DNA of 64,000 nucleotides from Bilabrum cf. latius (lineage: Eukaryota), in contig OZ237763.1 in NCBI GenBank assembly GCA_965178125.1, positions 310,001 through 374,000 of the forward strand. The letters are read 5' to 3'. A program made the position numbers and the translations under genes. The notes beneath the pieces are model-generated. The model made no database searches and had not been told where the DNA came from. It saw only the letters and a list, made by a program, of their open reading frames with translations. Positions 33,301-59,221 of this stretch are shown piece after piece (positions within the stretch are counted from its first letter, which is position 1; each line of letters starts with the position of its first letter).

Positions 33301-33656
33301 AGCGCAGGTTCAAGGTGCGGTCCAGCCGGCCTGACGTGGTGGACGTGCGGCCCGACTCGGTGGAGCTGGCCCTGCAGCCGGGCGAGACTGCCTTCATCCG
33401 CGTATCGGTGAAGTCGTACGGGGGCCCTAGCGCGGGCGATCCCAGCCCGAGCGCTCTGATGGCGGCGTCTGGGCTGTCCGGGAGGGAGCGTGTGGAGCTG
33501 GCCCGCAGCCTCGTGTCGAGCCTGCCGCCCGAGTTGGCTGTGGGCGAGGATGAGCTGCGGCTGGTGGGTGCGCGGGAAGCGCTGGTGTTTGTGGATGACG
33601 CGGAGGGCGGAGGGAACGTGGAGGTGCTGGGGGTACGGGTGGTGTACTGCGAGTGA
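24326..33656 (+). CDS. NPHP4: Nephrocystin-4 (ciliary transition-zone protein), ~3,030 aa, exons 24326-24500, 24605-25087, 25219-33656
   Basis: Conserved NPHP4 blocks occur in order: YRIHLFDKATGVFFGRTF, LLQGTPRAL, KAVYATFQFFACPPTRTEPL, FARYLA...VELWDASTHLPLGSA...LARQ, EIEVANPY, KRVTYTNTWPTERRFKVRSSRPDVV, EALVFVDDAEGGGNVEVLGVRVVY. Introns 24501-24604 and 25088-25218 are GT-AG and frame-consistent. There are 14 in-frame TAGs, and the stop codon is TGA at 33654-33656. Confidence 0.9.
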
Positions 33657-36800: not shown

Positions 36801-38747
36801 CAGTTTTGATACCCTAAGATCGATCGCCCATACCCGCGGCTTGGCCTCATCCGACTCCATCCAATCCATCCACACCACATCCGGGATCAGCAGCCGGTGC
36901 GTGTCCAGCACCATGCGCTCCCCGCTCGCCAGCTGATGCACCTCCACGTCAAACGGAAGGTGCAGAATGTGGTGCATAGCAGCTGATCGCTCGCATACGT
37001 GTTCCACCGCAGGTAATTGCTTCCTGTAGTCGAGATTCACGCCTATACTCTCGATAGCAGCGTATACAGCCTTGGCCAGCTTCTGCTCCTGCGGTGTGAG
37101 CCTTTTCTCGTCCTCCTCCGTCAGCCGCATGTGGGTGGGATCTAATGAATCTCCGAGGCGCTGCACGGCAGCGGGATCCATGCCCCAATCCTGAAGCATA
37201 TCCAGGAATGTTGAAGTACGGGATGCATCTGACTCTGACTCTGATGAGGCGTTGGAGCTTGGTGCAGCAGTCTGAGTGCTACCAGGCCAAACGGAGGTGA
37301 TATATCTGTGCTGCACCAATCCTGCAACGTTGAGACAATCGTAAGGAGCAATCCCGAAGTGATGGGCCAGAGGCTTCACCACGTCCTCCAGCTGCTCCTC
37401 GTCCCAATGCATGGACACTCCTCCATCCGATGATCCCACTCGCAGTGTCGTCTCCCGGATAGATACACCAAACGCAGCTTCAAACTCCCCTGGACCAGTC
37501 TTGCGCCGATCTTGCTGCTCTGTCTTGGTCCCACCAAACCTCTCTGGACTCCACGGCATGCAACCCCGCACATCCACGCGCGCGAACGCCTGCACTCGTA
37601 TCACATAGTGCCCGCCTCCAGATATACTCACTCGAACATCCACGCACTCAAGCAGAGGCGTCGACACGTGCACGCTGTCCATCACGTGCACCCAACGACT
37701 CGCCGCCGCCTCCCGCTTCGCCGCCTTGGCCGCCATGCGCGTGCTGCCGTAGATGCCCAGGTGGTCGAATGCGAACTTCAGGAACAGGCCCAGGCTCTCA
37801 TGCACAGCCTTGATGCCCCCGGCCATGCCCCCCGCATCGATGAACTTGAGACCCAGGGCCTCCTCAATCTTCGCCTTGTCCCCATCGGTGAAGCCCACAG
37901 GGTCCAGCGACCTGTCCCCGTCCCTCCACAGCATCTCCACCTCGGGGAAGCCCTCCAGCGCCTCGCGCACGTCATGCCTGAAGAGCACCCCGATGCGGTC
38001 TAGCCGTTGCTTGCGTTCCTGCTGCTCGTGCGGCCACAGGGCCACGGTACGCTTGGCGGCCTCGAAGGCGGGCTGTCGGCCTGCGGGACTGGGGGCCTTG
38101 TCATCATCAGCAATATCGGCCTCATCGCCTGCAAACCCAGCTGGTGGCACTGGGCCAAGCGGTATGACCGTGGGGCTGACAGGCTCCGGCTCAATGTATC
38201 CTATCCTCCTACCGGTCCCTGATGCCCCTGCCTCTAGGCTTCTGACACGCACTGCTGCGGCCCCTCCATACCCAACGCTGCTGCTAGGTGGCTTCTTCGA
38301 TCCTTGCGTTTGCCCAACCGATACCGCGCCAGTAGCTGCCGGGGTTGACAAGGTGGAAGCACCTGATGCTGCTATGCTGCCCGTCATAGTTGGCGATGAC
38401 CGTCCTACAGTAGTTGCTGAGTTTCCCTGAGTGTCACCGGCACCACGGTCCGGGCAAGAGAATGCCTGAACGGCTGCACCCGCAGATATCAACTCAAGCT
38501 TGCCTTCATCGCAAGTAAGAGGATATTGCCCGCCCTTTGCTCCGCGGAGGATAGTATTTCCTGACATCCCCTCTTGATCAATACCTTTTCCGTTTGCCAT
38601 AGAACTGTTTGCAGCAATCGGATCTTGTGACAAATGCTCAGGAACTGCAGCACTGATATCCAATGGTCTGGCACTTGCCGTACATGATTTTTCATTCGGG
38701 TCCGTGCTCTCAGACATGGGCTGCTGTCCTGCGATACTCACAACCAT
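33863..38747 (-). CDS. Clu (clustered-mitochondria/CLUH-like) domain protein with C-terminal 42-aa TPR array; 2-bp frameshift at ~34643
   Basis: ORFs 36372, 36057, 35802 and 34641 are in one frame joined by 8 TAGs. Clu-like motifs: GGIKA...LFLKFAFD...IYG...AAKAAKRE, TLRVGSSDGG, DVEVHQLASGERMVLDTHR, LMHSFGLGLRHV. TPR units read GQYGEALELYGQCxQIRETALGKQHPxY. After a 2-nt deletion the repeats continue in another frame to TGA at 33863-33865. Confidence 0.75.
33930..35640 (-). repeat. Tandem 126-bp repeats (~13-14 units) encoding 42-aa TPR motifs
   Basis: The core gctgcttgcccagcgcggtctcccggatctgc recurs every 126 bp. Several unit types are near-identical at DNA level (YGDTLYSMAGCYYNQ, YAATLHGMASCLHAQ, YATTLCNVAGCLRSL). 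Confidence 0.95.
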
Positions 38748-39751: not shown

Positions 39752-42700
39752 TCACGCCAATCGCTCCCTCAGGATCAGGTCCTCCAGCGAGACCCGCCCG
39801 TTTCTGCTCTTGGGAATGCTTCGTCTCTCTTTCACTCTCGCCGATCCGCCCGAAACCGACCCAGCTTCCCCCGAAGCAACCGACTCGTTGGGCGAGATGT
39901 GCCTAGACAAAGTTGTTCTCCCAGACTGCCTGCTTGTATCGCGCCCTGGAGAGTCGAGGTCTGGACTGTCGCCCCCGTCAGCATCCGTTGCGTCCACTCC
40001 GGCTCTTGCCGCCACTGAAGCCACCACGATGGCCCTGGCAGAGTCGCTGCCGAGCTTCCACAGGAAGAGCACAATAACTTTGCCCAGCTGCACCAAGGGT
40101 TCCTGCAGCACAATGTCAATAGCAAACGACACCAGGCTGGCAATGACCCAAGACCTCGCCTGCTCCGGCGTGAACAGTATCCCGTACAGGCAGCACAGGT
40201 AGAACATGAAGCCCACCACTACGAGCAGCACGCCGTACACCAGCCCAATCATCAGGCTTCTGTCCCACCACGCCTCTTCCCAATCTTCAACCTGCTGGTG
40301 CCTCCTTCTCTTGATCACCGCCCTCCTTCTCTTGAGCAGCTTCACGATTCTCAGCGCAGATGCGTGGAAAGTGGGATTGTCGCCCATGGCCTGTGCCAGC
40401 TCCGTGCGAATTCGGACTTGCTCCGTGCCGCTGTCGTGCAGTGCACCCCTGAGGCACTCGAATATGAAGTACCCTGCCATTATGAGCAGAGCAGGCAGCA
40501 CCTGCAGGCCAAAGACGGCCCCAGCGGCTTCTTCAGCGAACGGCAATGACAGCAAGCCCATGAGCACACCGCCAATCATCTGCAGCAGGATGGCAGGCAC
40601 CAACGCATATAGCGCGTTGTAGACCCAGCCTCTTCTCGACTGAATGAATGACACAGTGCCCAGCACTATCATACACAGGCCAATTCCGGCCAGGATAACG
40701 ATCGAACCAGCCGCTCCGTCCTGCTCCGCCCACACCTCTGCGCTCAGCAGGTAAAGCCCGAGAAGCATGCCCACGAAGCCAGCCCACACCCACACGATGG
40801 ACACGATACCGAGGGCATTCAGCCAAGGCCGGAGCCATTTGGCAGGCAGGGGTGCCTTCACGCTCAGCTGAGTCCGTCTGCCCGTGCTCGTGGTCTCTTG
40901 GGCAGCGCCAGCAAGGCGAAGACTGCGCACGATGCGCCTACAGGTCGAGTCAAACTCGCCCTCAAGCACGGCCCAGTTCTCTCTCGCGTCCTCAACACGT
41001 GTGCCATCTAAAGATGAAGATACATGGCCCTTATCCGGTGCTGTGGCCCCCTTTTGTCCCACTGACTCGCACCGGGAGCGAATGATTACTTCAACACCGT
41101 TGTTGCTTCGGCTGGTGGGCTCCCCTCTTGACATCGTCGCAACGTTGGGTATCATTTTCGACTCGGCGTGCACCCGCATTGCCAGTGCAGCAGCGAGTGA
41201 TGCAATGAGCTCGGGGTGTCGCCGAGACGCTTCGCCCTCAGGAAGCCCTTCATCGTTGTCGATTGTACTGCTGCCAGCAGCAGAAGCAGCAGCTGCACCC
41301 CGACTCGAGATAGAGCCAAGCCTGCTACCAAGAGAAGAAAGACCAAGCCGGCGCATGTGCTCTGTCTTGTGGAGGCTCTTCTGCGAGAGCATGCTGGGGT
41401 CCCGCATCAACTCGGGTTGGGCCACCACGTGTAGTAGGACGCTACGAACCTCGTTCAATGTGAGAACATGGCTCATGCCAGCAGGACTCCTCCGCTTGTA
41501 CACAAACCATTCTACAGCTGCATCCATGTCTGCAAGCGCACTGATCACCGCGCGTGACACGCTGACGGCTTCACGTGGGTCGATAGATGTCCTCGTTCCA
41601 ACAGAAGGCTCGCATGTGGGATCATCAGGAGCTGCATCGGAGTTATTGCGAGCACAGCGCCTGGCAGCTCGCAGTACCGCTTCGAGCGGAATGACGTGGT
41701 CTGATGGGTCATCACCACTCACGTCACTCCCGGCGTCTGAAGCAGTCGAAATGCCGCCAAAACCGACCATCCGAGTGCGACTGTCCGCGCAAGGCACCGC
41801 CTCCGTCGCGATGATCCCCCACGTGCCCTCGTTCGAATGCTTCGGGGGATCGACGTCTGCCTCGCAGGGTGAACCCGGAGGGATGGCACCAATCTCAACA
41901 GCATGGCCAATCGCAAGCCCGCCAGCCTTAGTGGATATAGCATCAGCCTGCTCAGCAGACCCTTGATTACCTCCTGCAGCTCCGTTGCTTTGCGGGCTCT
42001 GGGCAGCGCCATCATCTGCTGCTTCATACGGGCCAAAAGTCTGCGCTTGCTACTGAGCCTCACCATGATGCGAATCCAGCCCACTGAGATCATCACCGAT
42101 GACAGAAGGTGCCCGCTCGAGCACCCCATGCTCACCCGATTCCTGGAGTGCAGCAAGTGCTTCTGCCTTGCGGCCCGCCAGCTCCTTGGACCTTTGCTGT
42201 CTGACAGCGTAGGAAACGTCAAGACTTGCAGCACGGAACGTGTTGATGAACGCGAATAGAAACGGAGACAACCGCTTTACCGGGATCATGGAGGCCGCGG
42301 AAATAGCGGCAGAGACGAATCGGGCCGATACGCGCTCAGAATTGCTCCCGAAGAACACAGCATTGATAGCCATCGAGGTCAGGCATGTGGCCGTCAGGAT
42401 CAGCAAGCGCTGCGGCCGGGTCACCACCAGCAGGTCCTCCTTGGGCGTAAAGAAGATGCTGCCCCACATGTGGCCTCTACGCAGACCGTCAAGCCATTGC
42501 TGGGTCAGGTAGGCAACTACTAGCCAGAGTGTGCCTCGCTGTCGAAGGTCCATCCACTCATGCCTGGCGTCTTCCTTGTCCTGTCTAATTTCCTCCAGCT
42601 GCAGCCTAAGTCCCTCTTCTTCGCCTCGTACAGCGGCCTCGATCTGCTCCAGATCAACATAAGGCGGGTACACCGCGTACAGTTCCTTCTCGAGCGCCCC

Positions 42701-45700
42701 AGTCGCGCTCGCCAAACGACTGCTACCTTCTTCCTTTGATCTCCTGCTTGTCCTGGTCTTGTTGGATCCCTACTCGACCAATGATGCCCCCGACATGGAA
42801 TGCAAGGCATGCGAGCCATCGACTCCATCGAAAGCACCGCTAGCCAGTAAATCATCACGGGTCAAGCTCGGTCCTGCCACGTGAGTTGTTCCTTCTTCAC
42901 TAGTCGCAAGGTCTAGCTGTCGCACACTCACGTCCACGCCGGTTGACGGTGATTCCACGCTTGGCTGCTGGTTGGAGCCAACACTTGACGTGCTGACGGC
43001 ATACTTTTGGCGTGGAGTCGTCGGCATGGCACCGCGCGCCCTCGTTGCAGCATCATCTTCGTCGAGAACAGCCTTTGCCTGCCTTCGTTTCCTCTGTTCC
43101 TGAACGATTCCTCTCCTGTGCCTCTGCAGCACCTTGAGGTACACCTCTAGCTGGTCCTCAATGTGCAGCTGCTCCATGCCCACAGCCCTCTGAATCCGTC
43201 CAAATCGAAGCATGTGAGCCTGCCTCAGCTTCCTGAGCTCGGGCCTGCGCCAGCCCTCCACGATCGCGGATGTGACCCAAGCGGCCGCAAACGCCACCAA
43301 CAACACACCGAGTACAATCACAGGGAACAAGTTTTCGGGCCTGAGGTAGTTTATCAACAGCCCAGCATCTCCCACAGGGTCCACTCGATTTACCGTGGGA
43401 AGGTCTCTACGGACTACCGAAGTGAAGTCGGATAGGTGCGTCGTGGCACACACTGCAGCCCGTGCGCCGGTCACTACTTCAGTTTCCACACGTAGCAGAA
43501 CCAATCCCTCCGGCGACTCATCTGCGTAGCTTGATCCGTCCAGTCCATTACAGACAAAGTCCTCGGGAAGTGCATCTGGCCTGATTGGAAGTCTCACTAG
43601 GATGGGACACGCAAGGCCCGCCACACCCTGCTGCACCGAACCGGTTACTCCAGATTTGGCGAATGAAACCGACACAAAGCTTGATGGTCTATTCTCGCGC
43701 TCAGCGGTGGGAACGAGCAAATCTTGTGGTGTCTGTGGCGAAACGTCCCAGGCGACCAGGCGCACGTCCACGACGGGGCCGGCCAGCTCCAACTCAGGCT
43801 AAGCACCTATTGCGTCAACCCCAGCTTGCAACTAGCTGCCTTCAACGCGAAGACCCGCCTCACTGCGACCAGCAATAGATCGTCGAATAGATAGTCTTGC
43901 CGTCCCTGGCAACCCCACTTCGAGTGGCGCCTCACCAACCGCCACGTCTATCGATGCGGAAGCTGCCAGACGCTAAATGGTCGCATCGACCTATGTTCTG
44001 TATTCAGACAGCGTATTCACGCCCTACTGCAAGCGACGAGCTGTGCCAGTGCCTGTATTTTCATCTGCCAAGACTTCCTGCGCGAGGCCGAGAATCTGCC
44101 TGCCGATCGACCGAAGGGAATTCCGGGCCGACCCACTCCCCAGCGAGGATCGCTCCTACGCCCCAAACGCAACCAAAAGCCCCTCCAATCCGTCCTCGTC
44201 CACACTTGATATAGTACTGTTGAGCCTTTCCTATGCATTTTCAAGGACTTTGCTCAACAGCGACTGCAGGAGACCTTGTAGTTGCTGCCGATCCTCGGAG
44301 CGCAGCTCGCCTGGATCCTAGTACAGGCCGGATATCACGCTTAATGCCTGTTCGGCCTCATCTGGAGTGGCAGTCTCTAACTGCTCGAGCGACGATAGAA
44401 GTACTGCAAGCGCCGAGGCGCGCACGTCCTAGACAGACTCGAGAAGGGCGCCACTGATGTCGCAGGCTCTCCCGTGCCACCCGCTACTACACGTGCATAC
44501 GGCCGCACAACCAATAGAAAGTCCAGGGTTATGAACGCACGACAAGTCGTCTGGTATCCGCATACAGGAACCATGGCCACTGCATTCGACCGCGGGAACA
44601 CTGCCGCTGGGAACAAGAACCTGCGAGGATCCTGGACATGCCTGCACTGTTCTCAGGTCTGAAGAATCAGACTTACTCGCGGCGGGACCAATCAGGCACT
44701 GGCCAAAGAAACAGCTAGCTATATCTGTGGATCCAGCTGGTGCGGTGCAAGTCGTTGCATTGCAAAAGCTCTATGCCTCATTGCCTCGTGCTAGCGCACT
44801 GGCTTTGTCGGAAATAGTCTGAAGCACGGACAGAACCTCGTCCACGGCTTTGAACTCGGTCTCGCTGGACAAATTACCAACGCTATCACTGAGTCCTGCC
44901 AGTCTATCTTCGGCGATTGCACTGATATTTCCAACCAAGGATCCGGATGAATCTTGCTACTCAACTATTCTCACGATGACAGGCGAGCCGATCTGATCGT
45001 ACAGCGACTCAACCATGGAACCGAGCTGATCGCGTACCCGCACGCTAAGCACCACGGCCTATGCCACCCCAGGCGCACTCGTCAAGGCATCTCTCGCCTC
45101 CTCGCTTGGACTGACGACCACATTATCGATCGCAGGCGACTAGGAGAATCCCCGGGTCAGCGGAACGTACTCTACCGGGGACGCATTACCTAATGCAGCA
45201 GTCAAGCCAGCATTGGTCAATTGTCCTGCGCCTGCCAGCTGGGAAGCTGTTATTGGCAGCCGATAGTATCCGAAGCGGAAGGAGAGCGGCAAATGGTCAG
45301 CTTCGTCTGTCCATCCTACGGCACGCAACTTAAGACCATCACCCGCAGTTTGCGATAATAAACTAACAGACACAGGCTGTGCACTATTCCCAATAGTACC
45401 CTGATGAATAACCTCCAGGTGACCAGATGATGGAGGTGCGTTCGTTTCGATCACTACGGCGGCTGGAACAACCCAATCTTTTGTCGCACTTGACACGCGC
45501 ACTTCCACTCGGTACTGCGCACCCTCGGCCAACAGATCCGATCGAATGATTGCTTGGCCTAGCGAAGGCGCTCCACTGAAAACGGCTGCTCCAAGATCCT
45601 GGCCTCCGGTTGTTCCAGGAAGCACGCGGTACGCGGCAACAACATCAGAAGGCAAGACTGATGAATCTGTGGGTTGGATTAAAGGACCAACTGGTATCGG

Positions 45701-48700
45701 CAACCCAGTGGATCCGTCCAACATGATCGTATTCACGACGAGCCGTCTCTACGTGCTGATTATGGTTGCGTCATCGTCTGAACGGCCGCCGGCGACGACA
45801 GAAGAAGGGTCCACCTGAAGCTGCACGATGGGAGCTTGCACTATCTGGGATCCTGACAGATCTGAGTACGTTCCTACAATACAATAGGTTGTCTACTGCC
45901 TCCTTGCAAACGGGAATAAGGTTCCAACATTGACAGCCGCGCCCGGATTACGGACAATCGCCATGGACAGTGCCACCACGGAACCAGCCGGCAAGGCCCC
46001 ACCAGGCAGCTCCAGCACTGGTCCTATTCTGGCAGGTACAGACTGCAGATCACCGCGTAAGGCCGGTGAAACCGGAACAGAGGGTAGGAACTGGCTAGAA
46101 CTTGTACCCGTCAGGTTCAAACCTGGGCATGGCGCACCGTCAGTGAATGCGCGCGAGGCGGATGGCACGGATCCTGCGGCTGAGTCGACGAGTGCAGGGC
46201 TGGTCAGCCCTACATACAATAGCCTGCAGTCCCACTGGATCGATAGAGGCCTCGCTGTGACGTCAAGATCCGCCGAGCTGGTTCCGTCGAGCCGAATCGC
46301 TCTCTGATGCGGAACGAATCTTCGAGAACCTCCATTGATTGCGGCTCTCACACCATCCGGTCGTGTTGCAATGCGGACTACTGTCGAGGCAGACACGACA
46401 CCCGGTAAACGTACTCCGCCAATGATCAGCCTCTGTCGCACGGTAGCTCGCAGCGTGTACGATCTGCCGGCCCGAAGTGCGCCAGCGGGTAGCTCCAGTC
46501 GCCTTCCCCTCTATCTTCGATATCTACTCAGTTGCGATTCGGGCAGCAAATCAACCCGTAGGCTGGGATCTGAGACGCCAAAAGTGGGGCCCGCCGAAAC
46601 CATTGTCCACTCCACGGGCTCCTGCTCTACGTTCGCATCCACGCAAGGCGATGCGATAACCCGGGTCTAGAGACCAAAAGGCCTCAGAGCAGATCCCTCC
46701 ACGGTGTTGCCACCCTGCATGGAGATAATGGGGACGTTCTCAGCCACGCGAACGATCGTAATAGTTGCGGACCCCGTGCTCGTGGCGAGAAAATTTGCGA
46801 CTGTCACGCGCAAGGTAATATTTGTAGCTTGCGCAATGGCTGCTTGTGGCAGGGAAACAGATGCCCTGCGGCCGGCCGGGCCGTTCAAGAATGCCTATAC
46901 GGTGTCCACGTCAGTTGATCTCACCAAATGCCCCTGTATGGATATTAAGGACCACTAGAATGATAACGCACGCCCCAGATTGCCGTATGAAGAGTCCGCT
47001 GTGATTGTCACCCCATCACACGGGCCTATTGAGGTCGCGGTCTCAACCACGGCCACAGGCGGCTCGACCCGCCGCTTCGGGGGCTCAATTTGCAGGCATG
47101 TTGGTGCCATGGAGCGGAGTGAGAAGGGCGCAGACCGGAACACGCCACCTCGCAGCTGTAGTTGAGACAGCTCGCTATTGGTTCCTCTGACGAAGGATGT
47201 AGCCTACCCTGCTGTAGTGGTGGCGGCCGCCCGGCAGTTCAACACACCGGCCCATGGTCTGAGTGGTACGACTGTGGCACCAGCACCAAGGAACACATCA
47301 AGCTATCTTGACGACCTAAATGTGCACCATGCAGTCTGACCCTGCACTCCCTATGCCTGTGCAGCGAGAAGTCCTGCAACATTGGAGATGAGCTGACTAC
47401 AAGGCACTGACTGCAGCCGATTTGCGCCTATCGTGGCATCGACTTGGCCGGCAAATGTGATGGAAATACGAGACCCAGACGCATCGAATACTGCTGATTG
47501 CACAACTGGCGCTGGGCTCCGGTCACCGAGTGGTGCTTGCCCAGATGCAGTCGCGTATTGAGCTCGCTACGATTGTGGATTTGGCAATTCGACATTTGCG
47601 GATCGCACGGCGCTGGTACCCAGATCTATGATAGCCCCCGACTCAAAGCGTCCACTCTGCAACGCTGATAACGCAGGAATGGCGATTAGGTCACTCGGTG
47701 TGTGCCAAGCGCACATGGCGGGCTCACTCGAATCGTCGTCGCCGAATACTTCTGCTAGTGTGGCAGCGGATAGGATGGCTGGGTCTGTTGAACAGCGGAA
47801 GCCATCCTGTCGAACCGTGGCAAGCAACGACTGCGATGCTTCGAGTCCTGACAGGCTCGCAGGCAAGCTTGCAAGCACCTAGCGGCCGGCCATATTGGTG
47901 GCGCGGTCAAATCGTAGGAGGGCAGCATCCGCCACTTCGAGGAGGTCTGCTGACTTCAACTGGGGCGGATCGACGAAAACTGTTTCTATCTATCGCTGGG
48001 CAGGCTGAATCACTTCTGTCACGGACACTGTAGCTTCAAGGGGGTTGTCGCTGCCACCAGCACCCCGTGATTGCTAAGATGGCCCGTCGTACTAGGGGTC
48101 TGTGCTGCCGAACTCAAGGTAAATTGATCCACCACCTATCACCAGGGTTTCAGAAAGGTCAGAAGGCAGTGCCGAGCCGGGGCTGCTGCGGAGAACGAAG
48201 CTCACATCGTCTCGCCAGTCAGCGGGTTCAATCAGCCTGCGAGATCCCCCGATGACAGACAAGAAACCGCCGACTGTTGCATTGACTACGCAGTCAATTT
48301 GAACCGTAGCAGCTGGCCGGCTGCTCAGCTTAACCCGCAGCACTGCGTCTCTGAACGTGTATGAAGCAGAGCCGGGCCGAGTCTGTGTCACCGCCACAGT
48401 GGCCTCCCGCGGCCGGATGGACACCCCAACCTTATCAACTTCTCGTAGAGGAAGGAACACATTCGAAACGCTTCCAGCAGCAGACCGAGCGATTGCGCTG
48501 TACGTGCTATCAGTAGTTCCATCAGGGTCGATCCCGATCGTAATATTCACCGGCTTTCTTGGGGGAGATGCAATGCCGTCAGAAATTGTGAACAGCTTGA
48601 CAGCCTTTGGAATGCTCCAATCGCTAGGAGAGAACTCCATAGTTGCAAGTGATAGATTGCTAGCTGCATCAGGTGGTACATTACCGAGATCCTGCGCGAT

Positions 48701-51700
48701 CAAGCGCATCCTGACGATTCCTGCTGGCTATGATGCAAGGGCAAGTGCCACAAATGCAGAGCCACCTTCTGCCGTTACAGGTGCGGTTGCGACGCTATCA
48801 ATAGCGAGTAGATCAAATCCTACTGCGTTTAATGTATTCGTGCCGGAGCCATACCGAGGCAGCAGCCCGAGTGGGAGTGAAGTTGAGGCAGAGATAGGCG
48901 CATCTCCCGGGGCACTAAAGACTAGGAATCCAGCAGCATCGTTTGCAAGCGCTACGACTGTTAGGTTCACGGTCGTTAGCATTTCAGTTCTGTTTGAATC
49001 TAGCAGATGTAGCTCGAACTCGAGCGAGTCGCATCTGCTGGACGACCCTCCACCTGGAAGCTGAACCTGCAGACGGGTGGGTACGTCAAAGTTTTCCCGC
49101 TGCACGGTTGTCAGGACACTTCCACGCCGAATCAGATCTCTCAGATCTTGACCACGGTACGACAAAGGGAAGTTGACTTCTACGGCGCACTCAGAATCGT
49201 TGCCTTGTGCTGGTCCAGCAAAGGCTAAGACAGCACCTGTCCGCGTCACTGGATGAGACATGTATATGTCCAAAGCCAGTGTGGCGCCTCGCACCACTGT
49301 CACATCCGCACTAGAAGACTTTGCGTATGAGCCTCCTCCTGCTTCAGCTGCCCTATCTTCATCGACCTTGAAAAGGAAATTGTTTATGCCAGCAGGCAAC
49401 GAAGCACCTGGTGGCATCACACCATGTGGCTCAACCACAATCGCTGTTGAGCCTGATTGCGGCATAGCGCTCGGAGATGCTGATGCTGCTGCACCAGGAG
49501 AAGGTGTAGACGGCACTGGCTGGGTCGTAGACAGCTCCGGGCTCGCACTCACAGAACCACTTGGCGAGCTCGACGGACTCTGAGGCGCTGTTGGGGATGG
49601 AGTAGCAGTGATGCCCTAAGATGGGCTGGGGCTAGGCACCACTCCCTACAAAAACACTACCAGTACTGCACCTCGGTTTTCCCCCCCTGTATCGTCCAAC
49701 GCGGACCCCATGACTAGGTGTATCATCCCGTCCCCTCCCAAGCCTCGAATCCCTGCTGCATTTGAGGTCTAACTGCCTGCTTGCCACACCGGATCCAGAA
49801 CGCGATCAAGCCGGTTTAGCTTGACCGCCTGTCTCACTGGGACATTGGCTCCACCTGGATTCAAATACAGGATGTAGATCGCCCCAGACCAGGTTCCGCC
49901 TGCGTCTCCATATCTAGATCCAGCCAGCAAGTCATCTTGTCCGTCCCCGTCTAAATCGCCGCATCTCCCAATTCGACCGAATGAAGACCCGTCGATGGTG
50001 CCAGCCGGGATACCTCCCAAGCCGTCTTCAATGATCTCTACGGAGCCGGAAACAACCGTTCCAGTGGAACTGAGCCGGAACAGGGCGATGGCACCAGATG
50101 TAGACAAGTATTCCACGGCCAGATCTACCGGGTTACCGGGCAGTCGGGGGCTAAGCGGCACGATGAAATTGGAGAGGCGGCTATTTGCAGCACTCCAGTA
50201 CCCATCGAGGCCTTTCCCAGTTGCAGTCGATACCACCGTGTATTCTCTTACGGTATCGTCTCCCCGCATGAACAGGACGAACAAAGCACCGGCATTTGAA
50301 AGAGGGTTATCACTGAGCGGCTCTCCAACTATGATGTCAGACAGCTGGTCGCCGTCGATATCCCCAACGTCTCCTGTGACACCGTCACCAAACAAACCGC
50401 CCGACTGGATGGACCCGGCAGGCATACCCCCAAGCCCGTTCGCGATCTATTGCGTATGAACCACCGTTGCATTCGGCAGCAGTCGCATGATATATAGGGT
50501 TTCCGCCCGCCTGGCTCCACCCAGTAGCCTGGGCATGTGTCCCTGCTCGCCCATGGGCTGCTCCAGCCAGCCAGGAGTGCCGAACTGCACATCGTTGACC
50601 GCATCAACTTCGGCACCGCCCTCAGTCGCAGAGATTTTCTGGTGCTTTCGTAGCGTGCCATTCTAGTTCAGGAAGAATACGTACACTGCCCCGCTATCTT
50701 CACCGCCGTCATCATCACTTGGTGCGTACACCGCAATCTCGTCAATTCCGTCCTTATCCAGGTCGCCGAGACCAACTAGACCGAATCCCAACCGGTCATC
50801 ATTGTCTAAGACTCCACTGGGCAGACCATTGAGGCCGCTGGCAATCTTAATCGCGGATCGTACAGATCCAATGGACAGCGGAGCCCCACTTGAGCTGGGG
50901 CTACTGCTGGTGCTTGGTGTGGGCGAGGTGCTAGGGCTAAGACTTGGGCTAGGACTCGTGCTTGGACTCGGACTTGTGCTCGCTGTCGGCGATGGCGACA
51001 CGCTTGGTGCCAGCACTGTCTCCGTGCGGAAGATATACACCGCGCCGCTGCCGCTCGAGTTCAAGGCTCCTCCATGCCCGGGTGCACCGACGAATGCATC
51101 AAAGTCACCGTCCCAGTCAAAGTCCACCACGCCCACACCCGAGCCGAATCGCGCCCCCGCCTCCAGCTCATCGCCCAGATCACCCGAGTCGTACCGTCTG
51201 CTCGTGGTGCTGCTGTTGCCCACGATCGTCACTTGCGTCACGTTCCATGTGCCATTCAGACTCACGGCAAACACCCTGCCCACGTCGTCATCCTACCCCC
51301 TGCCCCAACCAGGAGACCCCACGTACACCTCCACGAACCTGTCCCCGGTGTGGTCCAGCGAGACCTCCACAGAGGCGCCGAAGGCCTCTCCGCCGGACGG
51401 ACCGAAGCGCGCAGGGGGCCGCAGCACCTACACAGTCTCCAACGCGTGCCCGCTGCCATTCACACGAACCATAAACACCGCACCAAGCCCTCCTGGGTCC
51501 TGACCTGATGCACCGATCGCCACCACGTCCTCGCTGCCAGGTACCCCAGACACGCCAGACCCGAACCGCGCTCCCACATGCGACATGTAAGCAGTGCCAA
51601 CCAGCCCCTGCTGCTGGCTGATCTTCCTAGAAGATACCACCCAGCCAGTGCTGTCCAGCCCAAGCAGCCATACAGCGCCCGCGCCCGATCCCACCCCGCT

Positions 51701-54700
51701 GCTACTGTCTCCAGGAGCGCCCACACACACATCGGGATCCCCGTCGCTGTTGAAGTCGCCCATCCCAGACACAGATGCACCAAACCAGTCGCCCGCCGAC
51801 AGCATGCCGCTGAAGCCAGACTCGCCGGTGGCAATGCGCTTTGTGATGTCATACACGGACCCGTTCGTCTGCAGAAACAACAGGAATGCCGAGCCCCGCC
51901 CGTCCTGCGCACCGGGCGCACCCACAAGCAGGTCGATGAAGTCCACGTTGTTGCCGAGTCCACGCACTGCGCTGACCGCCAGGCCAAAGCCATCACTGGG
52001 CTCCACTGATGGATGGATGCTCGCGCCCGTGTGCTCCACGAGGCTCAACACCTGCGCGCCCGCACGAGAGCCGTTCGCCATCAGCGCCACAAAGGCCGAC
52101 CCATTCGACCCCAGGACCAGGTCGATGTACCCGTTGCCATCGAGGTCCCCGAGCACGCCGACGCTGCGACCGATGCCGCCGAACGGTCCGGTTCGGTTGG
52201 CCAGGTGTACCCGACTCTGCTCCAGGATGCCGGTAGGCACGAAGGCGCCGGGGTATGGACTCGCAGAGACAGTGGACGATGGGCTGGTGCTTGGCGTGGG
52301 CGAGGTGCTTGGGGGGCTGCTGGTGCTTGGTGTGGGCGAGTTGCTAGGGCTAAGACTTGGGCTCGGACTCGTGCTTGGACTCGGACTTGTGCTCGCTGTC
52401 GGCGATGGCGACACGCTTGGTGCCAGCACTGTCTCCGTGCGGAAGATATACACCGCGCCGCTGCCGCTCGAGTTCAAGGCTCCTCCATGCCCGGGTGCAC
52501 CGACGAATGCATCAAAGTCACCGTCCCAGTCAAAGTCCACCACGCCCACACCCGAGCCGAATCGCGCCCCCGCCTCCAGCTCATCGCCCAGATCACCCGA
52601 GTCGTACCGTCTGCTCGTGGTGCTGCTGTTGCCCACGATCGTCACTTGCGTCACGTTCCATGTGCCATTCAGACTCACGGCAAACACCCTGCCCACGTCG
52701 TCATCCTACCCCCTGCCCCAACCAGGAGACCCCACGTACACCTCCACGAACCTGTCCCCGGTGTGGTCCAGCGAGACCTCCACAGAGGCGCCGAAGGCCT
52801 CTCCGCCGGACGGACCGAAGCGCGCAGGGGGCCGCAGCACCTACACAGTCTCCAACGCGTGCCCGCTGCCATTCACACGAACCATAAACACCGCACCAAG
52901 CCCTCCTGGGTCCTGACCTGATGCACCGATCGCCACCACGTCCTCGCTGCCAGGTACCCCAGACACGCCAGACCCGAACCGCGCTCCCACATGCGACATG
53001 TAAGCAGTGCCAACCAGCCCCTGCTGCTGGCTGATCTTCCTAGAAGATACCACCCAGCCAGTGCTGTCCAGCCCAAGCAGCCATACAGCGCCCGCGCCCG
53101 ATCCCACCCCGCTGCTACTGTCTCCAGGAGCGCCCACACACACATCGGGATCCCCGTCGCTGTTGAAGTCGCCCATCCCAGACACAGATGCACCAAACCA
53201 GTCGCCCGCCGACAGCATGCCGCTGAAGCCAGACTCGCCGGTGGCAATGCGCTTTGTGATGTCATACACGGACCCGTTCGTCTGCAGAAACAACAGGAAT
53301 GCCGAGCCCCGCCCGTCCTGCGCACCGGGCGCACCCACAAGCAGGTCGATGAAGTCCACGTTGTTGCCGAGTCCACGCACTGCGCTGACCGCCAGGCCAA
53401 AGCCATCACTGGGCTCCACTGATGGATGGATGCTCGCGCCCGTGTGCTCCACGAGGCTCAACACCTGCGCGCCCGCATGAGAGCCGTTCGCCATCAGCGC
53501 CACAAAGGCCGACCCATTCGACCCCAGGGCCAGGTCGATGTACCCGTTGCCATCGAGGTCCCCGAGCACGCCGACGCTGCGACCGATGCCGCCGAACGGT
53601 CCAGTCCGGTTAGCCAGGGGTACCCGGCTCTGCTCCAGGATGCCGGTAGGCACGAAGGCGCCGGGGTATGGACTCGCAGAGACAGTGGACGATGGGCTGG
53701 TGCTTGGCGTGGGCGATGCGCTTGGGCTACTGCTGGTGCTTGGTGTGGGCGAGGTGCTTGGACTCGGGCTCGGGCTCGGAGGCACCCCACCCATGAATGC
53801 AATGAACAGCGCGCCTCTGTTGGAGCCTCCAGTGTCGTCCTAGCTTGCGGCAAAGACCAGATCAGTGCGGCCGTCCCCGTCAAGATCACCCAAGGGAGTG
53901 CCGGCTGTGAAGAGCGTACTGCTTACCGCAATACCGTTCAAAGCCCCGGTGCTTGGTTCGATCTTTGTGATTGATTTGACTGCATCTGCCTGGGAGCCTG
54001 AGTTGAGATAGAATACGTACGCCGTATTCTCAAGGCGAGCTCCGACGAACAGGTCCTCGTTCCCGTCTCCGTCCATATCACCAGCGTTCCGGACCGGAAA
54101 CCCCAGCTCCGATCCCAGTCCGATTGCACTGATTGGCAGCCCCTCCTCGCCGTTCTCAATTGTCTCGGGGGGCCCAATAGCACCAGATGCGTTGAGCCGC
54201 ACAATGTGGAGTCGGTCAGCAGACAGCTCAGCAATGACTAAATCCACCGGATTGCCAGCAGACCGCGGGCTGATGGCAGCAATTGAGAATCCGATGGAGC
54301 TGACACCGGACGGCATCCCTTCTCCGCTCGCCGGCGAAATTCGAAAGTGGTTATGAATCGTGTCGTTGCCGTTCATTAACAGCACAAAGACTGCACCAGT
54401 GTCGGGTGCGCCTGCATCAGTGCTCGGCGCCCCGGCGGCAATGTCATTCAAGCCATCCCCATCGAGATCTCCCAAGCTACCCGAGATCGCACGCCCGAAT
54501 AAATCACCGGAGCCTATGGTGGAAACAGGCATGCCACCCACACCGTTTCCGATCTCCTGCTAATGTGCCACGGTACCATTTGGAAAAATTCGAAGCACCA
54601 ATACTGAACCAGCGTTGGTAGCGCCTGCATCGCTCTAGAACATACCTACCGCAATTCTCGGCAAGTGGCCGTCATCACCGGAGGGCTGGTCCAGCCGCAC

Positions 54701-56455
54701 AGGGTCGGCTCCAAATCTCTAGTCAGGTACTGTGGGGCTGAAGACCAGCCCACCTTCTAGCGCGCTTATCTTCTGGTAGGTCTTGACCGTGCCGTTCCGA
54801 TGCATGAACATGATCATGAACGACCCGCTGTTTGACTGATCGTCATCATCGCCGAAAATATGCACTGCAATGTCCTGCACCCCATCCCCGTCCACATCGC
54901 CGATGGAGGATAGCGATTCACCCATAGTATCATCGTCCACAAGCACGCCATCGGGCAGTCCGCCCACTCCGCTGGCAATCTTCTACACCCTAACAGGAAC
55001 CCCAGCAGCAGCTGGCGCAGCCGAAGGTGAAGGACTCGGGAGAACGCCGCCCATGAGCGTTACAAAAATGGCCCCGCGGTTCTCCCCTCCCATATCGTGG
55101 AAAGATTGCGTCAGGATGAGGTCGGTGCGGCCATCGCCATTGATGTCACCGATCCCAGTGCCTGCTCCTAAATAGTCTCCGCTCGTGGCCTTTCCCATCA
55201 GTTGCGACCACACGAAGCGGCGAAGATCACGAACTGGGTCTACAGAGGGATCATCGTTCATGTACAGTATGTAGGCAGCCCCATTTGAGCCCTGATAAAA
55301 CGGTGAGCCGACTAGCAAGTCATCAATGCCATCGCCATCCATGTCTCCTGGGTTGGATACAGTAGAACCAAAATCACCGCTAAATGACCCAGATGGCACA
55401 CCACCTGACACCGGAAGGCCGCCAGAGTTACTCTTGATAACTGAAATGGTGCCCCCGACGCTTCCGTTAGCAGCTAAAGGCACCAATAGGATAGTGTTGG
55501 ACTTCTTTACGCCCACCACTAGATCAACGGGGTGGCTCAGAGGATCGCGAGGAGGTAGTGCAGTGAGGCTGCTGCCGACTTGAGTAATGGCCGGGACCAC
55601 GGTGTCAAGACCCATTCCCGGGGCCTGGGATAAGACCACGTGCTCGCGAACCGTGTCATTCCCGTGCATTAGTAGTACAAACACGCCACCATTGAGCGTT
55701 CCACCCAGGTTTGCCTGAGGGACCCCGACTGCCATGTCGTTCAGTCCATCGCCGTTGATATCCTTCACCTGGGTGGTGATACCAGCGCCAAACTAATAGT
55801 TTGCCCCAAGGGTACCACTGGGCAGTCCACCCGCACCATTGTGGATCTCAGTCTGGAGCAGCACTGTTGCGTTCGGTGACATCCGGAGTACATACAAGCG
55901 GCCTGCGTTGCCGGCATCCAGGTCGTTGCCCGGCTCCCCCACGACCATCCGAGGGAGATGGCCTTCTTCTCCATTCGGCTGATCCAAGCGAGATGGCTCT
56001 GCCCCTAGCTGATCGTTGTTTCCTCCAGCGCAGCTCAAGCCGTTCCCACACCGAATCTCGCGGTATTCCCTGACAGTGCCGTTCCGGTGAAGGAAAAACA
56101 CCAACACCGCGCCTGCGTTGGTATCTGGCAAGTCGGAGAAGTGGTACCCGACCGCTACTTCATGCACACCATCGCCGTCGAGATCCCCCATGTCGCCCAC
56201 GTACGTGCCAAACTATCCGTAGTTAGACAAGCTGTTGGACGGGAGCCCGCCCACCCCGTCTGCTATCCTCGTGACGCCTGCGATGTTCCCGACTGCTGCA
56301 GGGCTGGGCGAGCAACTGGGGGTCACGGATGGCGTCGGGCTTGGAGATTCAGCGACTAGCAGTCTGTCCATGTGGGCGCCCACATCTGGCTCAACAGCGG
56401 CAGCGTGCCACAACAGTGCGCTGCATCCCATTACCAACAGCACAAGACTTGGCAT
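39752..56455 (-). CDS. Polycystin-1 (PKD1/REJ)-like giant receptor, ~5,567 aa, apparently single exon: signal peptide, many FG-GAP repeats with Ser/Pro/Thr linkers, Ig/Calx-beta-like modules, REJ-like region, EGF-like domain, GPS motif, ~9 TM helices
   Basis: About twenty ORF fragments from 56213 to 39752 share one frame. I counted about 46 in-frame TAGs and no TAA or TGA in the gaps read. ATG at 56455 begins MPSLVLLVMGCSALLWHAAA. Motifs: GDLDGDG FG-GAP loops; LDGTSSADLD...IQWDC and NAPPSSGHLEV...AVGWTD...LPLSFRFGY (REJ-like); CSGHGSC...CTCSSGWHGRAC (EGF); CATTHLSDF (GPS); HMWGSIF...TRPQRL and YGILF...SWVIASLVSFAIDIVLQEPL (polycystin-1 TM-region motifs). Stop codon is TGA at 39752-39754. Confidence 0.85.
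50904..53757. repeat. Near-perfect 1,413-bp (471-codon) intragenic tandem duplication of an FG-GAP propeller module
   Basis: Sequence starting at 50904 recurs at 52317, and briefly at 53730. ORF-track pairs are offset by exactly 1413 (51428/52841, 51460/52873, 51262/52675). Only a few substitutions separate the copies. Confidence 0.95.
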
Positions 56456-59221
56456 GGCAATGGTGTCGTTGCGACCTTTGGTAGAGCTGCTGCAAGTTGC
56501 CAATAGGCTATTCATCCTAATCTCTGGTGGACCGTGTAACCCTAGGTGTTGCGCGGATCCTATGTCTACTGCGGTGGATACGACGGTCAATCGGGCATGG
56601 CTCGAATACAGGTCGGGTACTGCAACGCACAACTTTGCCGCGCCAAGCTTAGATCCATACAAATCAATAATGCACAGAAGGACGACGACAGCGGATATAC
56701 GGCGGGAAATGGGGTAACGTACAGCCTTTTGCTAAGGTCGCGGCGATGGTTGACCACACACTGCATGCAAAATGATAACCTCCGGTCATCAATTGAGCTC
56801 ATAGAAGGTGGAAAATAATAACACCAAATGAATGATCACCACGGTCTTTATTGTGAATCAACAACAACCTTGAGTTGCATTCGACTATGTGCCGAATCCC
56901 TCAAAATGTGGGTTATCGGCCTAATTTCGATAAGTGGGGGCTAAAACCGCACGATCGCATGGATTATCTACACAATAGCATATTTGTCTCACTAAAACGA
57001 TTAATGAGCGCCGCGTGATCCTGTATCAGGACAGCTATAGGCTCCAAGAGTTGACTGACAACAGGTCGATATCGTTTGTGAAATTTGTTGAAAGTGTCGA
57101 CACGCCCTCCTGTACCGGGTGCGCAAGTACAAATATCTGTAGTGAAACTATCTTTTAGGGCAAACCCCCAACTGTTCCTCTGTACCTGCACCAGGGAATT
57201 GCGAGGGAAACCCTGGTGAAGCTAGAAGCTGTGATCTTCATCTTCTCAATTGTGTCCATTCGACTAATCACGATTGTTGATGAATTTGTGTAGCAATGCT
57301 CATTCCCTAGCCAAATTATACGTGTCAGCAGCGATCTCAAGTGTGTGCGCTGCGCTTGCTCTCCCAGTGGTAAGCGCAAAGCTTCTTATGCTCCCTACCC
57401 AGCATGGGACACTGGCAGCCGCACTGCAACATTTTGCGACCATGAGCACCGCACCAAACGTCGCACGTGCTGGCTTGCCGCGAGGCAAAAACGTTTCCTC
57501 TAACAAGCTACCCACAAACTCACGCGTGCACTGACCTGCTCAGGCTGTGCTCCTTCTATTACACGCGCGCGGCTTGCTGCCAGATGTTGGCTTCGAAACC
57601 TCCCAGCTGCTGCCGAACGTGCGTTGGCGGTACCTGGCTGTTCCTATCGCTTGGCCACAGAATGTGAAGCACCCGGGGTGAATTACAGCTACGGATCGGC
57701 CGACCTGCCATGATTCACACGATGCTGAGGCTCAGTAGCCACTACCGCATCGTGGGCTGGCACAGAGTCCTTGCGCCAAGCCATGCCTGGAGTGCGGAAC
57801 AGCCTGATGTCTCGGCTGCTCACGTCCATTCACTTGAGCCGGCTGTCCAAGTTGACGCTGACGTAGTTTGTACACCGCTCAATACCAGCGTTGCGCCACG
57901 GGCTGCAGGCTAGTCTGCACTCGCTGCTGTCGGTGTCACCCGCGCTGCCTTCAGCCGCATGGCCACCCCCATGGGGTGGGCCCGGCGACAGCCGCACCGG
58001 AATTTCGCCCCTGCAGTCCCGCCACCGGCAGCCATTCCTTTTCTAATTCATTGTCATCATTGATACCAGGCGGAATTCTAGTAGTGCTCTTGGGTTGCCT
58101 CTCAGGCTTGTGCTTAGTCAAGCAGCCATCCTAGCACAGTATCCTCGCATAGACGACGAGCCCACCAGCAAAGAAGCCACCCGTGTGAGAAAAGCAAGGT
58201 CGCTCTATCAATCATACGCAGGCGGGCGATTTGTCCCTTGCACTAGAACAATTGCTCCAGCGTTGCCCCGTTCGCACAGGGACCTAACCAGCTGGAGCGG
58301 CGGATTCTCTCAAGAGATAGTCTCGACTGGAAACGGTAAGACCTGGGGTCAGGCATGGCTGATTCCGAGTCATGTGGGTCCTGGTTTGTGTTCCCGAACC
58401 CTAGCGCAGCAGTCGATGCGTTGCGGCTGGCGCCGCGTACATCATGCCACTGGCAGCGGCAACAGAAAATCCTCCTGCCCCCGGCCCCGCGGACTCACTG
58501 GGCTTCACCCCGAACGACTGGTTTTTCCCCGGTCCATCTGAATGTGGTATTCCATTTATACTACAAATGTACGCACAACTTTCCCAGTTTTTGCAAGAGG
58601 TCCTTTGTAGCGTGTTGAACTTTCCCAGTACACGTGCAGCACGTCGACTGGCCTCGTCGCTGCATGGCTTCCTGTTCCCGTTCCCCGCCCTAAGGTCATT
58701 GTGCGCTGTTCCCTGCATCGCCACTATGACCCTTTCCTCCCAGCTTGCACGTGCCGGTCCTGGCCAACCTGCCATGCGTTCCATCCATCCACCTGCCTGT
58801 TGGCCTCTTCTGCGCGCCGCAACCCGCTGCCACTCGCGTCTCCCTTGTGCCTGGCACCTGGAGCCGCCTCCCTCCCGTTGTGTTCTCCCTATTGACACCG
58901 AACTGTCGTCGCCTGTGCTGGTGGCCCCTCTTGTTCCTCTCTGCCTCGTCGTCGCCCATCTCGCTTCAACCAAGTACATATTGCATGAACGGAGCACCTG
59001 ACCACGGTCGCACATCAGCATAGAACAGTTATAGAATACGTATTGTATGTGCTTTTATTGTTGAATGGGTGCTTTGTAGGCGAGATCAGGGGTGTGTGCC
59101 GTCCACGTGCGGGGTCAGAGCAATGCAGTGCAGTCAGGTTTTGTTGTGTGTGGTTTCTTATTTACGGGTTGGTCGGTGGGGTCGTCATCCACCAACTGTT
59201 CACAGCAAATTCACCGAAGCT

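Follow-up and report, generated by a model that had tools for sequence, protein, structure and literature searches.

Is a giant surface protein that combines polycystin-1-like membrane helices with an FG-GAP ectodomain a polycystin, an integrin-like adhesin or a receptor of its own kind? This question is raised by a locus of Bilabrum cf. latius (GenBank assembly GCA_965178125.1, contig OZ237763.1) in a stretch of 64,000 nucleotides (positions 310,001 to 374,000 of the forward strand), hereafter the window, in whose own numbering coordinates are given. At 39752-56455 of the window the original prediction, made from the letters alone, placed a single-exon polycystin-1-like receptor fused to integrin-alpha-like FG-GAP propellers. 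Our analysis indicates that the gene encodes a single giant protein with arrays of six-repeat FG-GAP modules, a REJ region, a predicted GAIN domain and the first five transmembrane helices (TM1-TM5) of polycystin-1, and that a four-helix tetraspanin-like insert lies between TM3 and TM4, giving nine predicted membrane helices in total. The channel half of polycystin-1 is missing, and with its paralogs in the genome the gene makes up a family of at least nine.

Reading frame and genetic code

With TAG translated as sense, the minus strand carries one frame that is open from stop to stop over 39752-56785 (5,677 codons) and encodes 5,587 residues from its first ATG (39752-56515), whereas under the standard code 39752-56455 falls apart into short minus-strand pieces. 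The frame contains 46 TAG, 43 CAA and 124 CAG codons and no TAA, and terminates in TGA; the original prediction had estimated about 46 TAGs hiding the gene, and the count is exactly that. It is not a chance opening, because each of the five remaining frames across the stretch contains 53-177 TAA and TGA codons. Codes with TAA, TGA or TAR as sense were rejected, as the frame opens with TAG alone and TAR brings no gain. In-frame TAGs also occur in the other six long frames of the window, 3-27 in each, and those frames terminating inside it stop at TGA or TAA.

In well-aligned columns of the paralogs discussed below, TAG stands opposite Gln in 146 of 344 pairs and opposite another TAG in 28, similar to CAA, which faces Gln in 192 of 427 pairs; against library homologs TAG faces Gln in 67 of 148 pairs (the pairs being non-independent in both TAG comparisons). 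Tyr lies outside the eight commonest residues opposite TAG. The same genome has a tRNA gene with a CUA anticodon (G000:C23:907607-907679, minus strand), whose best global match among tRNAs read from 30 of 48 loci is Tyr(GUA), followed by Gln(UUG), so that its sequence leaves its identity unsettled; by eye its D-arm and discriminator resemble Gln(UUG) and its acceptor stem is Tyr-like. Translation, paralog alignment and the presence of the CUA tRNA gene nevertheless bear out one giant frame with TAG as Gln.

The second in-frame ATG, at 56455 (M21), with which the original prediction began the gene, is probably the likelier start than ATG 56515, because the sole N-terminal hydrophobic stretch (residues 23-41) directly follows it. 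Over residues 2291-5587 the gene shows no private insertion longer than 8 residues relative to five paralogs; this DNA comparison suggests that the gene is a single exon, although introns are present in other genes of the same genome. Contigs of one sequencing run, which may be the source sample, match most of the gene without differences; their depth is no measure of copy number. Three runs guessed to be RNA gave sparse contig matches, mostly to paralogs, and are uninformative on transcript, strand and splicing.

The host is likely a bicosoecid-like stramenopile, because its eRF1 exon has Cafeteria roenbergensis as best named match (69%) and because of the named relatives of the giant gene given below; the main 18S array measures 1,700 bases. 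A nuclear code with UAG as Gln and UAA and UGA as stops is thus likely in a probable bicosoecid. A full-text literature search, outside which most subscription papers lie, returned no paper on UAG as Gln in a bicosoecid nucleus; UAG-only Gln is documented in Iotanema and some ciliates, and the part of that source available to us mentions 'stramenopile' 0 times (PMC11687900).

The putative receptor core and its missing channel half

The features of the gene are as follows, from the amino terminus onward; residues are counted from ATG 56515.

39752-56515 (-): whole reading frame, 5,587 residues (5,567 from ATG 56455), 46 TAG read as Gln, TGA stop
56393-56455 (-): likely start M21 and presumed signal peptide, residues 21-41 (hydrophobic window 23-41)
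55037-56293 (-): FG-GAP module 1, six repeats of about 69 residues (Pfam, repeat profile)
53777-54997 (-): FG-GAP module 2, six repeats (Pfam, repeat profile)
52421-53668 (-): FG-GAP module 3, six repeats, near-identical to module 4 (repeat profile)
51008-52255 (-): FG-GAP module 4, six repeats (repeat profile)
49634-50872 (-): FG-GAP module 5, six repeats (Pfam, repeat profile)
56300-56347, 53669-53776, 52256-52420, 50873-51007 (-): shorter Ser/Pro/Thr linkers (sequence)
49436-49633 (-): Ser/Pro/Thr-rich stalk (sequence)
47966-49435 (-): beta-rich region, residues 2361-2850, two copies of a module recurring in paralogs and homologs, putative Ig-like fold (motif scan)
47096-47965 (-): conserved Cys-containing pre-REJ region, unnamed, common to library homologs by BLASTP
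44936-47095 (-): REJ region (Pfam PF02010, best stretches residues 3374-3431 and 3656-3837)
44456-44764 (-): Cys-rich EGF-like region, residues 3918-4020 (PF23106 below cut-off)
43400-44464 (-): predicted GAIN domain, residues 4018-4372 (AlphaFold model, Foldseek, fold comparison)
43430-43438 (-): His-Leu-Ser 4360-4362, predicted self-cleavage between Leu and Ser (conserved HLS/HLT motif)
43262-43330 (-): TM1, residue 4396 (hydropathy, alignment, homolog model)
42407-43261 (-): predicted cytosolic loop 1, at the site of the PLAT domain in polycystin-1, no Pfam match
42344-42406 (-): TM2, residue 4704 (hydropathy, alignment; helix 473-493 of the homolog model)
42245-42319 (-): TM3, weakly hydrophobic, residue 4733 (hydropathy, alignment; helix 502-531 of the homolog model)
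40823-42244 (-): predicted cytosolic loop 2, about 470 residues, variable among paralogs (paralog comparison)
40448-40822 (-): four-helix tetraspanin-like insert, residues 5232-5356, without the large CCG loop (four hydrophobic windows)
40301-40363 (-): degenerate IQ-like basic helix (IQ-type motif in homologs and in paralog C5)
40169-40252 (-): TM4 (hydropathy, alignment, homolog model; TM4-5 together residues 5422-5484)
40064-40147 (-): TM5 (hydropathy, alignment, homolog model)
39755-40048 (-): predicted cytosolic tail of about 100 residues, hydrophilic, no channel domain after it (sequence, no Pfam match)

The five-helix bundle was recognized on the model of a homolog, P0026 of Cantina marsupialis, built from an alignment that included the giant protein (predicted local confidence, pLDDT, 75 overall, about 90 in TM1-5 and mostly 50-70 in the insert). 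Its residues 365-1004 align with residues 3063-3610 of polycystin-1 (8z6b_A), a range that we take to be TM1-5, with Z 13.4 and a root-mean-square deviation (rmsd) of 4.2 over 182 aligned residues; among the 13 rows above Z 9 from 48,161 chains, this was the sole alignment confined to the membrane part. The fold shown on the homolog, transferred by alignment, predicts that the TM1-5 bundle of polycystin-1 is present in the giant protein. The counterpart of loop 1 in the P0026 model is helical and about 60 residues long.

Neither PLAT nor PKD_channel (PF08016) gave a Pfam match on the giant protein and at its locus, respectively, and both were found in 0 of 45 library homologs scanned with Pfam (the longer ones, up to 5,000 residues); the frame itself ends about 100 hydrophilic residues past TM5. 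Because it is without PLAT and the channel half, the giant protein, as judged from these profiles, is no polycystin-1 as that family is defined, nor can it serve as a pore subunit. The polycystin-1-type membrane motifs originally proposed thus hold for the TM1-5 bundle and fail for the rest. An Atlas feature search with the C-terminal 305 residues recovered, at 0.92-0.93, eukaryotic clusters without names and, at 0.78, a cluster with PLAT, the latter a lead only.

Upstream of TM1, an AlphaFold model of residues 3860-4430 (pLDDT 86, predicted template-modeling score 0.81) shows the GPS region folding as a full GAIN domain. The top six Foldseek matches of the modeled domain are GAIN domains of adhesion GPCRs (G-protein-coupled receptors), with E from 7e-8 to 1e-6, and it aligns with the GAIN domain of latrophilin-1 (4dlq) with Z 19.7 and rmsd 4.3 over 282 residues. 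A C-x3-HL(S/T)-D-F motif is found in all nine family members of this genome, and its His is invariant in alignment A2. The Pfam GPS profile gives no match on the giant protein, and the GPS motif of the original prediction accordingly survives as a GAIN fold with an HLS motif. The REJ region matches PF02010 at 58.6 and 27 bits (cut-off 25), as had been proposed. The EGF domain is a partial case: EGF_Teneurin (PF23106) reaches 16 bits here (E 0.013), under its cut-off of 24.3, and exceeds it in homologs. Both matches on which the original prediction staked itself were therefore recovered, REJ over its cut-off and GPS at the level of the GAIN fold.

The FG-GAP ectodomain

The FG-GAP modules of the original prediction are firmly recovered, with 216 bits against a Pfam cut-off of 22.1. 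A repeat profile counts exactly 30 repeats, in five modules of about 415 residues with six repeats each, spaced by 63-75 residues. The best PDB sequence matches of module 1 are integrin alpha chains, led by integrin alpha-X (E 1e-6); the integrin alpha propeller, however, has seven FG-GAP repeats (PMC13524835). The modules of the giant protein have six repeats each and so are not, strictly speaking, integrin-alpha propellers, and we infer that they form six-bladed propellers; of the integrin-alpha likeness first claimed, the repeats remain. Modules 3 and 4 result from a duplication of 1,464 bp (52317-53780 and 50904-52367) with 21 differences between the copies. The mucin-like linkers, likewise proposed before, are directly visible as Ser/Pro/Thr-rich segments, and the ectodomain has 42 N-glycosylation sequons. 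The putative Ig-like region (residues 2361-2850) has no match in Pfam or NCBIfam, and a PDB search with a repeat-rich paralog returned nothing for it.

A tetraspanin-like insert in the membrane core

The most unusual part of the protein, overlooked by the original prediction, is the four-helix insert with the IQ-like segment that follows it. Its hydrophobic windows lie at 5234, 5272, 5304 and 5334, with a short first loop. In 7 of the 45 homologs scanned (two of them in one 90% cluster) the Pfam Tetraspanin profile matches at the insert over its cut-off, and in 3 more below it; P0154, a cluster mate of a positive homolog, had no Tetraspanin match reported. These matches always lie near the C-terminus, ahead of the last two helices, and in these homologs the insert has a CCG loop that contains additional Cys residues, and is followed by an IQ-type motif, for which Pfam IQ stays below cut-off. 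The best natural PDB matches of the family profile are tetraspanin-7 (E 2.6e-5) and tetraspanin-15 (E 2.3e-4).

At the CCG position the giant gene has a short turn, and its eight paralogs likewise lack the loop. A tree of the 28 of 83 aligned rows that cover four core segments, unrooted and with long-branch warnings for three rows, has the loop in 12 rows and explains its loss by one change (support 91/87). The Gln of the IQ motif is kept in paralog C5 and lost in the giant gene and the other seven paralogs. Profile comparison with two free tetraspanins of the genome did not rise above reversed controls, even for CCG-bearing inserts, and fold searches of the P0026 model, dominated by GAIN and with a poorly modeled insert, had no tetraspanin among the matches listed. 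On the sequence evidence, the case for tetraspanin ancestry of the insert is strong for the family as a whole and moderate for the clade of the giant gene, where position, helix count and tree speak for it. Four helices with both ends inside would fit the predicted topology and place the IQ-like helix in the cytosol.

An expanded family of paralogs

The original prediction missed that the gene belongs to a family. Eight paralogs lie on four other contigs, each a single frame of 3,962-8,163 codons with the same order of core parts, and the giant gene is thus one of at least nine members. The number of FG-GAP modules per member is about 11, 9, 6, 5 (the giant gene), 3, about 3 and about 1; paralog C12b has one Pfam FG-GAP match and C5 none. 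The tree groups the eight FG-GAP-bearing genes of the genome in a single clade (100/100), to which C5 does not belong. Modules of paralogs C19a and C19b share 73% identity, and those within C19c 98-99%. Identity of the giant protein to its six closest paralogs is 82-96% in TM2-3 and 83-95% in TM4-5, as against 31-52% in the Ig-like and pre-REJ regions. As the transmembrane segments are conserved and the ectodomain diverges, with 0 to about 11 modules, the family pattern is one of fixed output and varied input.

A search with residues 4331-5510 against 1.84 billion representatives gave 257 matches, of which the best 150 were listed. The relatives with a named source come from Cantina marsupialis and Bicosoecida sp. 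CB-2014 and, at a greater distance, from a pedinophyte; the same core occurs in single proteins among library homologs 3,000-6,500 residues long. REJ, EGF, TSP1 and GPS recur among the 45 homologs scanned, and FG-GAP occurs in 0 of 45. The FG-GAP module profile matched 0 of 44 library proteins of at least 900 residues, a set with many fragments in which TAG-recoded relatives would be broken by standard calling; the FG-GAP form may be missing from the libraries because standard gene calling fragments genes with TAG as sense. A word-index search with residues 2900-4460 among proteins of 3,072-9,778 residues returned nothing, which at its low sensitivity is no evidence of absence; a second, which took the alignment of the membrane domain to longer proteins, recovered, at equally low sensitivity, one REJ protein.

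A more distant and simpler gene of the same class, at G000:C35:148084-165921 on the minus strand, is a frame of 5,946 codons with REJ and GPS (34.8 bits); five helices are seen by eye, with neither insert nor channel, and the channel-less core therefore also exists without a tetraspanin. Partial TM4-5 copies lie outside full genes at G000:C1:2740096-2740941, C19:149135-150046 and C29:287104-287415, the last with a TAA inside the match, and many further REJ matches are concentrated on contigs C19 and C37. The genome also has free PKD2-like channel genes, with five full-length PKD_channel matches of 76-107 bits, and at least two free tetraspanin genes. The loci L070, L071, L063 and L064 encode a tetraspanin-like domain that follows an apparent PH domain, a multi-helix tetraspanin-like protein and PKD2-like channels with long C-terminal extensions.

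Proposed function and rival explanations

By analogy we propose, with somewhat more confidence than doubt, that the giant protein is a self-cleaving adhesion sensor whose nine-helix, non-channel core informs the cytosol when prey or a surface is touched; the adhesion or sensing role suggested by the original prediction is upheld as the likeliest. Cleavage at His-Leu/Ser 4360-4362 would leave the ectodomain held non-covalently on a stalk of 34 residues. The propellers, with calcium loops of the DxDGDG type, would bind surface ligands, the number and type of modules setting specificity and reach. On the analogy of adhesion GPCRs, polycystin-1 and tetraspanins, binding or pulling would shift or shed the ectodomain and bring the stalk to bear on the five-helix bundle, the insert would be a built-in membrane organizer for partner proteins, and the cytosolic loops and the IQ-like helix could relay the signal, possibly via calmodulin.

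Several observations weigh against this proposal. GPS motifs usually carry two Trp residues, both missing here though present in many homologs, and cleavage at the GAIN site may have been lost, given these absences and that of a Pfam GPS match. For the bundle, Z 13.4 borders the range that the tool calls common for helical bundles, PDB searches with the TM2-3 and TM4-5 profiles, run up to E 10, miss polycystin-1, and a longer profile reaches it at E 0.48. For the insert, a designed helical bundle ranks above the tetraspanins in the PDB search with the family profile, and the insert of the giant protein has no Pfam match. A profile of the loop-less inserts reaches tetraspanin-15 at E 0.47 and misses both CCG-bearing relatives and the free tetraspanins of the genome; compared directly, loop-less and CCG-bearing inserts give a probability of 39% (E 3e-4, controls 0.03-0.6). 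The IQ glutamine is lost. Finally, the stalk signal proposed for polycystin-1 runs via its TOP and pore domains (PMC9672506), and these are missing here.

Among other explanations, the protein could be the sensor half of a split polycystin that docks in trans on a free PKD2-like channel, thereby rebuilding animal PKD1/PKD2 out of two genes, and admits calcium on contact. The five full-length PKD_channel matches (76-107 bits) supply candidate partners, the IQ-like motif would suit calcium feedback, and tetraspanins chaperone partner membrane proteins; but the parts by which polycystin-1 joins the PKD2 ring (S1-S6, TOP and C-terminal coiled coil; PMC9672506 in part) are missing and, at the places listed, no family member has any of the five channel genes nearby, so we regard this as unlikely. 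A structural adhesin or surface coat, with ectodomain glue shed at the GAIN site and a core that is a cytoskeletal anchor without signaling, would draw avidity and reach from near-identical tandem modules (98-99% in C19c and between modules 3 and 4), mucin-like linkers and the 42 sequons. FG-GAP surface families are also expanded in another stramenopile and proposed there for host attachment (PMC13524835). A nine-helix core that is 82-96% identical in close paralogs and conserved as far as Cantina and a pedinophyte exceeds the needs of an anchor, however, and makes this explanation improbable.

The insert in the clade of the giant gene might also be an unrelated four-helix bundle that replaced a tetraspanin at the same site, as its weak direct similarity and its lack of a CCG loop and of a Pfam match would allow. 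Position, helix count and the following IQ-like segment are nonetheless identical to those of CCG-bearing relatives, the tree needs one change, and the first two helices align above controls; replacement thus seems to us a poor bet. It is scarcely credible that several adjacent genes, or a pseudogene, have been joined by TAG read-through or misassembly: assemblers do mishandle near-identical tandem repeats such as modules 3 and 4, but across the whole window TAG is a sense codon (3-47 in each long frame) and aligned with Gln, the eight paralogs on four other contigs are likewise single frames with the same core order, and library homologs of 3,000-6,500 residues carry this core as single proteins.

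Beyond the self-cleaving adhesion sensor proposed above, we tentatively raise a broader scenario, possible though rather doubtful: GAIN plus the five-helix bundle may be a receptor class of its own, parallel to the GAIN-7TM adhesion GPCRs and possibly predating the TRPP fusion in animal polycystin-1. One stramenopile branch would have captured a whole tetraspanin with an IQ motif, and the lineage of the giant gene would have dropped the loop and built shuffled arrays of six-repeat FG-GAP modules for recognition of prey or surfaces. If true, the unexplained TM1-5 bundle of PKD1 gains a channel-independent signaling role that is testable in isolation. A natural family that keeps REJ, GAIN and TM1-5 strongly conserved without the channel half offers a ready test of whether this unit can signal by itself. 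It is also unusual for domains to be combined by fusing a tetraspanin into the loop of a receptor, and the exchangeable FG-GAP arrays on their fixed core make a candidate recognition system. The host is presumably a bacterivorous flagellate, and the prey-selection receptors of such flagellates are poorly known. Both the G-protein-like signaling of polycystin-1 and what its first five helices do are disputed (PMC9672506).

Host genome and neighboring genes

At one edge of the window another giant frame with TAGs (1-11436, minus strand; more than 3,800 residues) runs off its end, carrying FG-GAP and at least seven IPT/TIG domains. A HEAT/DUF4042 protein lies at 18247-24078 (minus strand), and 25242-33656 (plus strand) encodes a protein of 2,804 residues without a Pfam match, whose C-terminal part we take to be nephrocystin-4-like. 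At 33863-38747 (minus strand) lies a CLU-like protein with TPR_10/12 repeats, whose TPR array resumes in another frame past a TAA at 34641, possibly because of a frameshift or because near-identical repeats were misassembled; a gene like it occurs near 284001-287003 of G000:C29. A single-pass surface protein of 1,433 residues, with a Ser/Pro linker and no Pfam match, is encoded at 58985-63286 (plus strand).

The eRF1 gene (L074:1500-2941; G000:C35:455983 on) has introns, and its stop-recognition motifs read TAVNIKS and YMCDSHF, the usual forms being TASNIKS and YLCDNKF; an in-frame TAG stands at a conserved site three codons after NIKSRVNR. A second, different 18S gene (L001, G000:C95:6099-7900), with what we take to be a dinoflagellate-like signature, likely comes from a co-assembled organism. 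Contig G000:C111 is apparently mitochondrial, and its tRNA with a UCA anticodon suggests UGA as Trp.

Comparison with known systems

The full-text search, again outside most subscription papers, turned up neither a REJ-GAIN protein with a tetraspanin insert nor FG-GAP arrays on such a core. A preprint that refers to a stramenopile eight-helix tetraspanin-like protein and has a figure of stramenopile FG-GAP architectures (10.1101/2024.02.19.579948) could bear on the novelty of this architecture, whereas 10.1101/153437 has no relevant content. In the family of Pirsonia FG-GAP/EGF proteins, likewise expanded in a stramenopile and variable in length, some members combine EGF with several helices, and the main text of the paper mentions REJ, polycystin and tetraspanin 0 times (PMC13524835). 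Ectocarpus Esi0130_0068 is also a stramenopile REJ-GPS protein with several membrane helices (1,427 residues, 6-7 predicted helices), for which FG-GAP and tetraspanin go unmentioned in the part of the source available (PMC4700764). Closer still is P0029 of Bicosoecida sp. CB-2014, automatically named 'PKD/REJ-like domain-containing protein' in UniRef, a direct homolog with the same core, which unlike the giant protein keeps the CCG loop and TSP1 repeats and has no FG-GAP.

With 11-TM polycystin-1 (PKD1) the giant protein shares REJ, a GAIN domain with the GPS motif before TM1 and the TM1-5 bundle. It lacks the PLAT domain and the TOP and S1-S6 channel half of polycystin-1, TM3 and TM4 are separated by four additional helices and an IQ-like segment, and FG-GAP modules replace the LRR, WSC, C-type lectin and PKD repeats of polycystin-1 (PMC9672506). 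Adhesion GPCRs (latrophilin, BAI, CELSR, GPR126) have in common with it the GAIN fold, the HL/S site and the stalk before TM1, as well as interchangeable adhesive N-terminal domains; their 7TM domain is absent here, with no 7tm Pfam match and helices split by loops of 285 and 470 residues. GAIN predates the GAIN-7TM module, which is described as holozoan (PMC12716839). Tetraspanins (TSPAN7, TSPAN15, CD9) share the four helices and, with the relatives of the giant gene, also the large CCG loop and further Cys residues; they are free proteins, whereas the insert is fused inside a receptor and lacks the large loop in the clade of the giant gene. Integrin alpha has FG-GAP repeats too, but the giant protein has six per module, tandem modules and a REJ-GAIN core; no Pfam match to the thigh or calf of the integrin leg is present, and a multi-pass core stands where integrin alpha has a single helix and a GFFKR tail. 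By their defining features the giant protein lies outside the 11-TM polycystin-1, adhesion GPCR, integrin alpha and tetraspanin families, and it is built from their parts.

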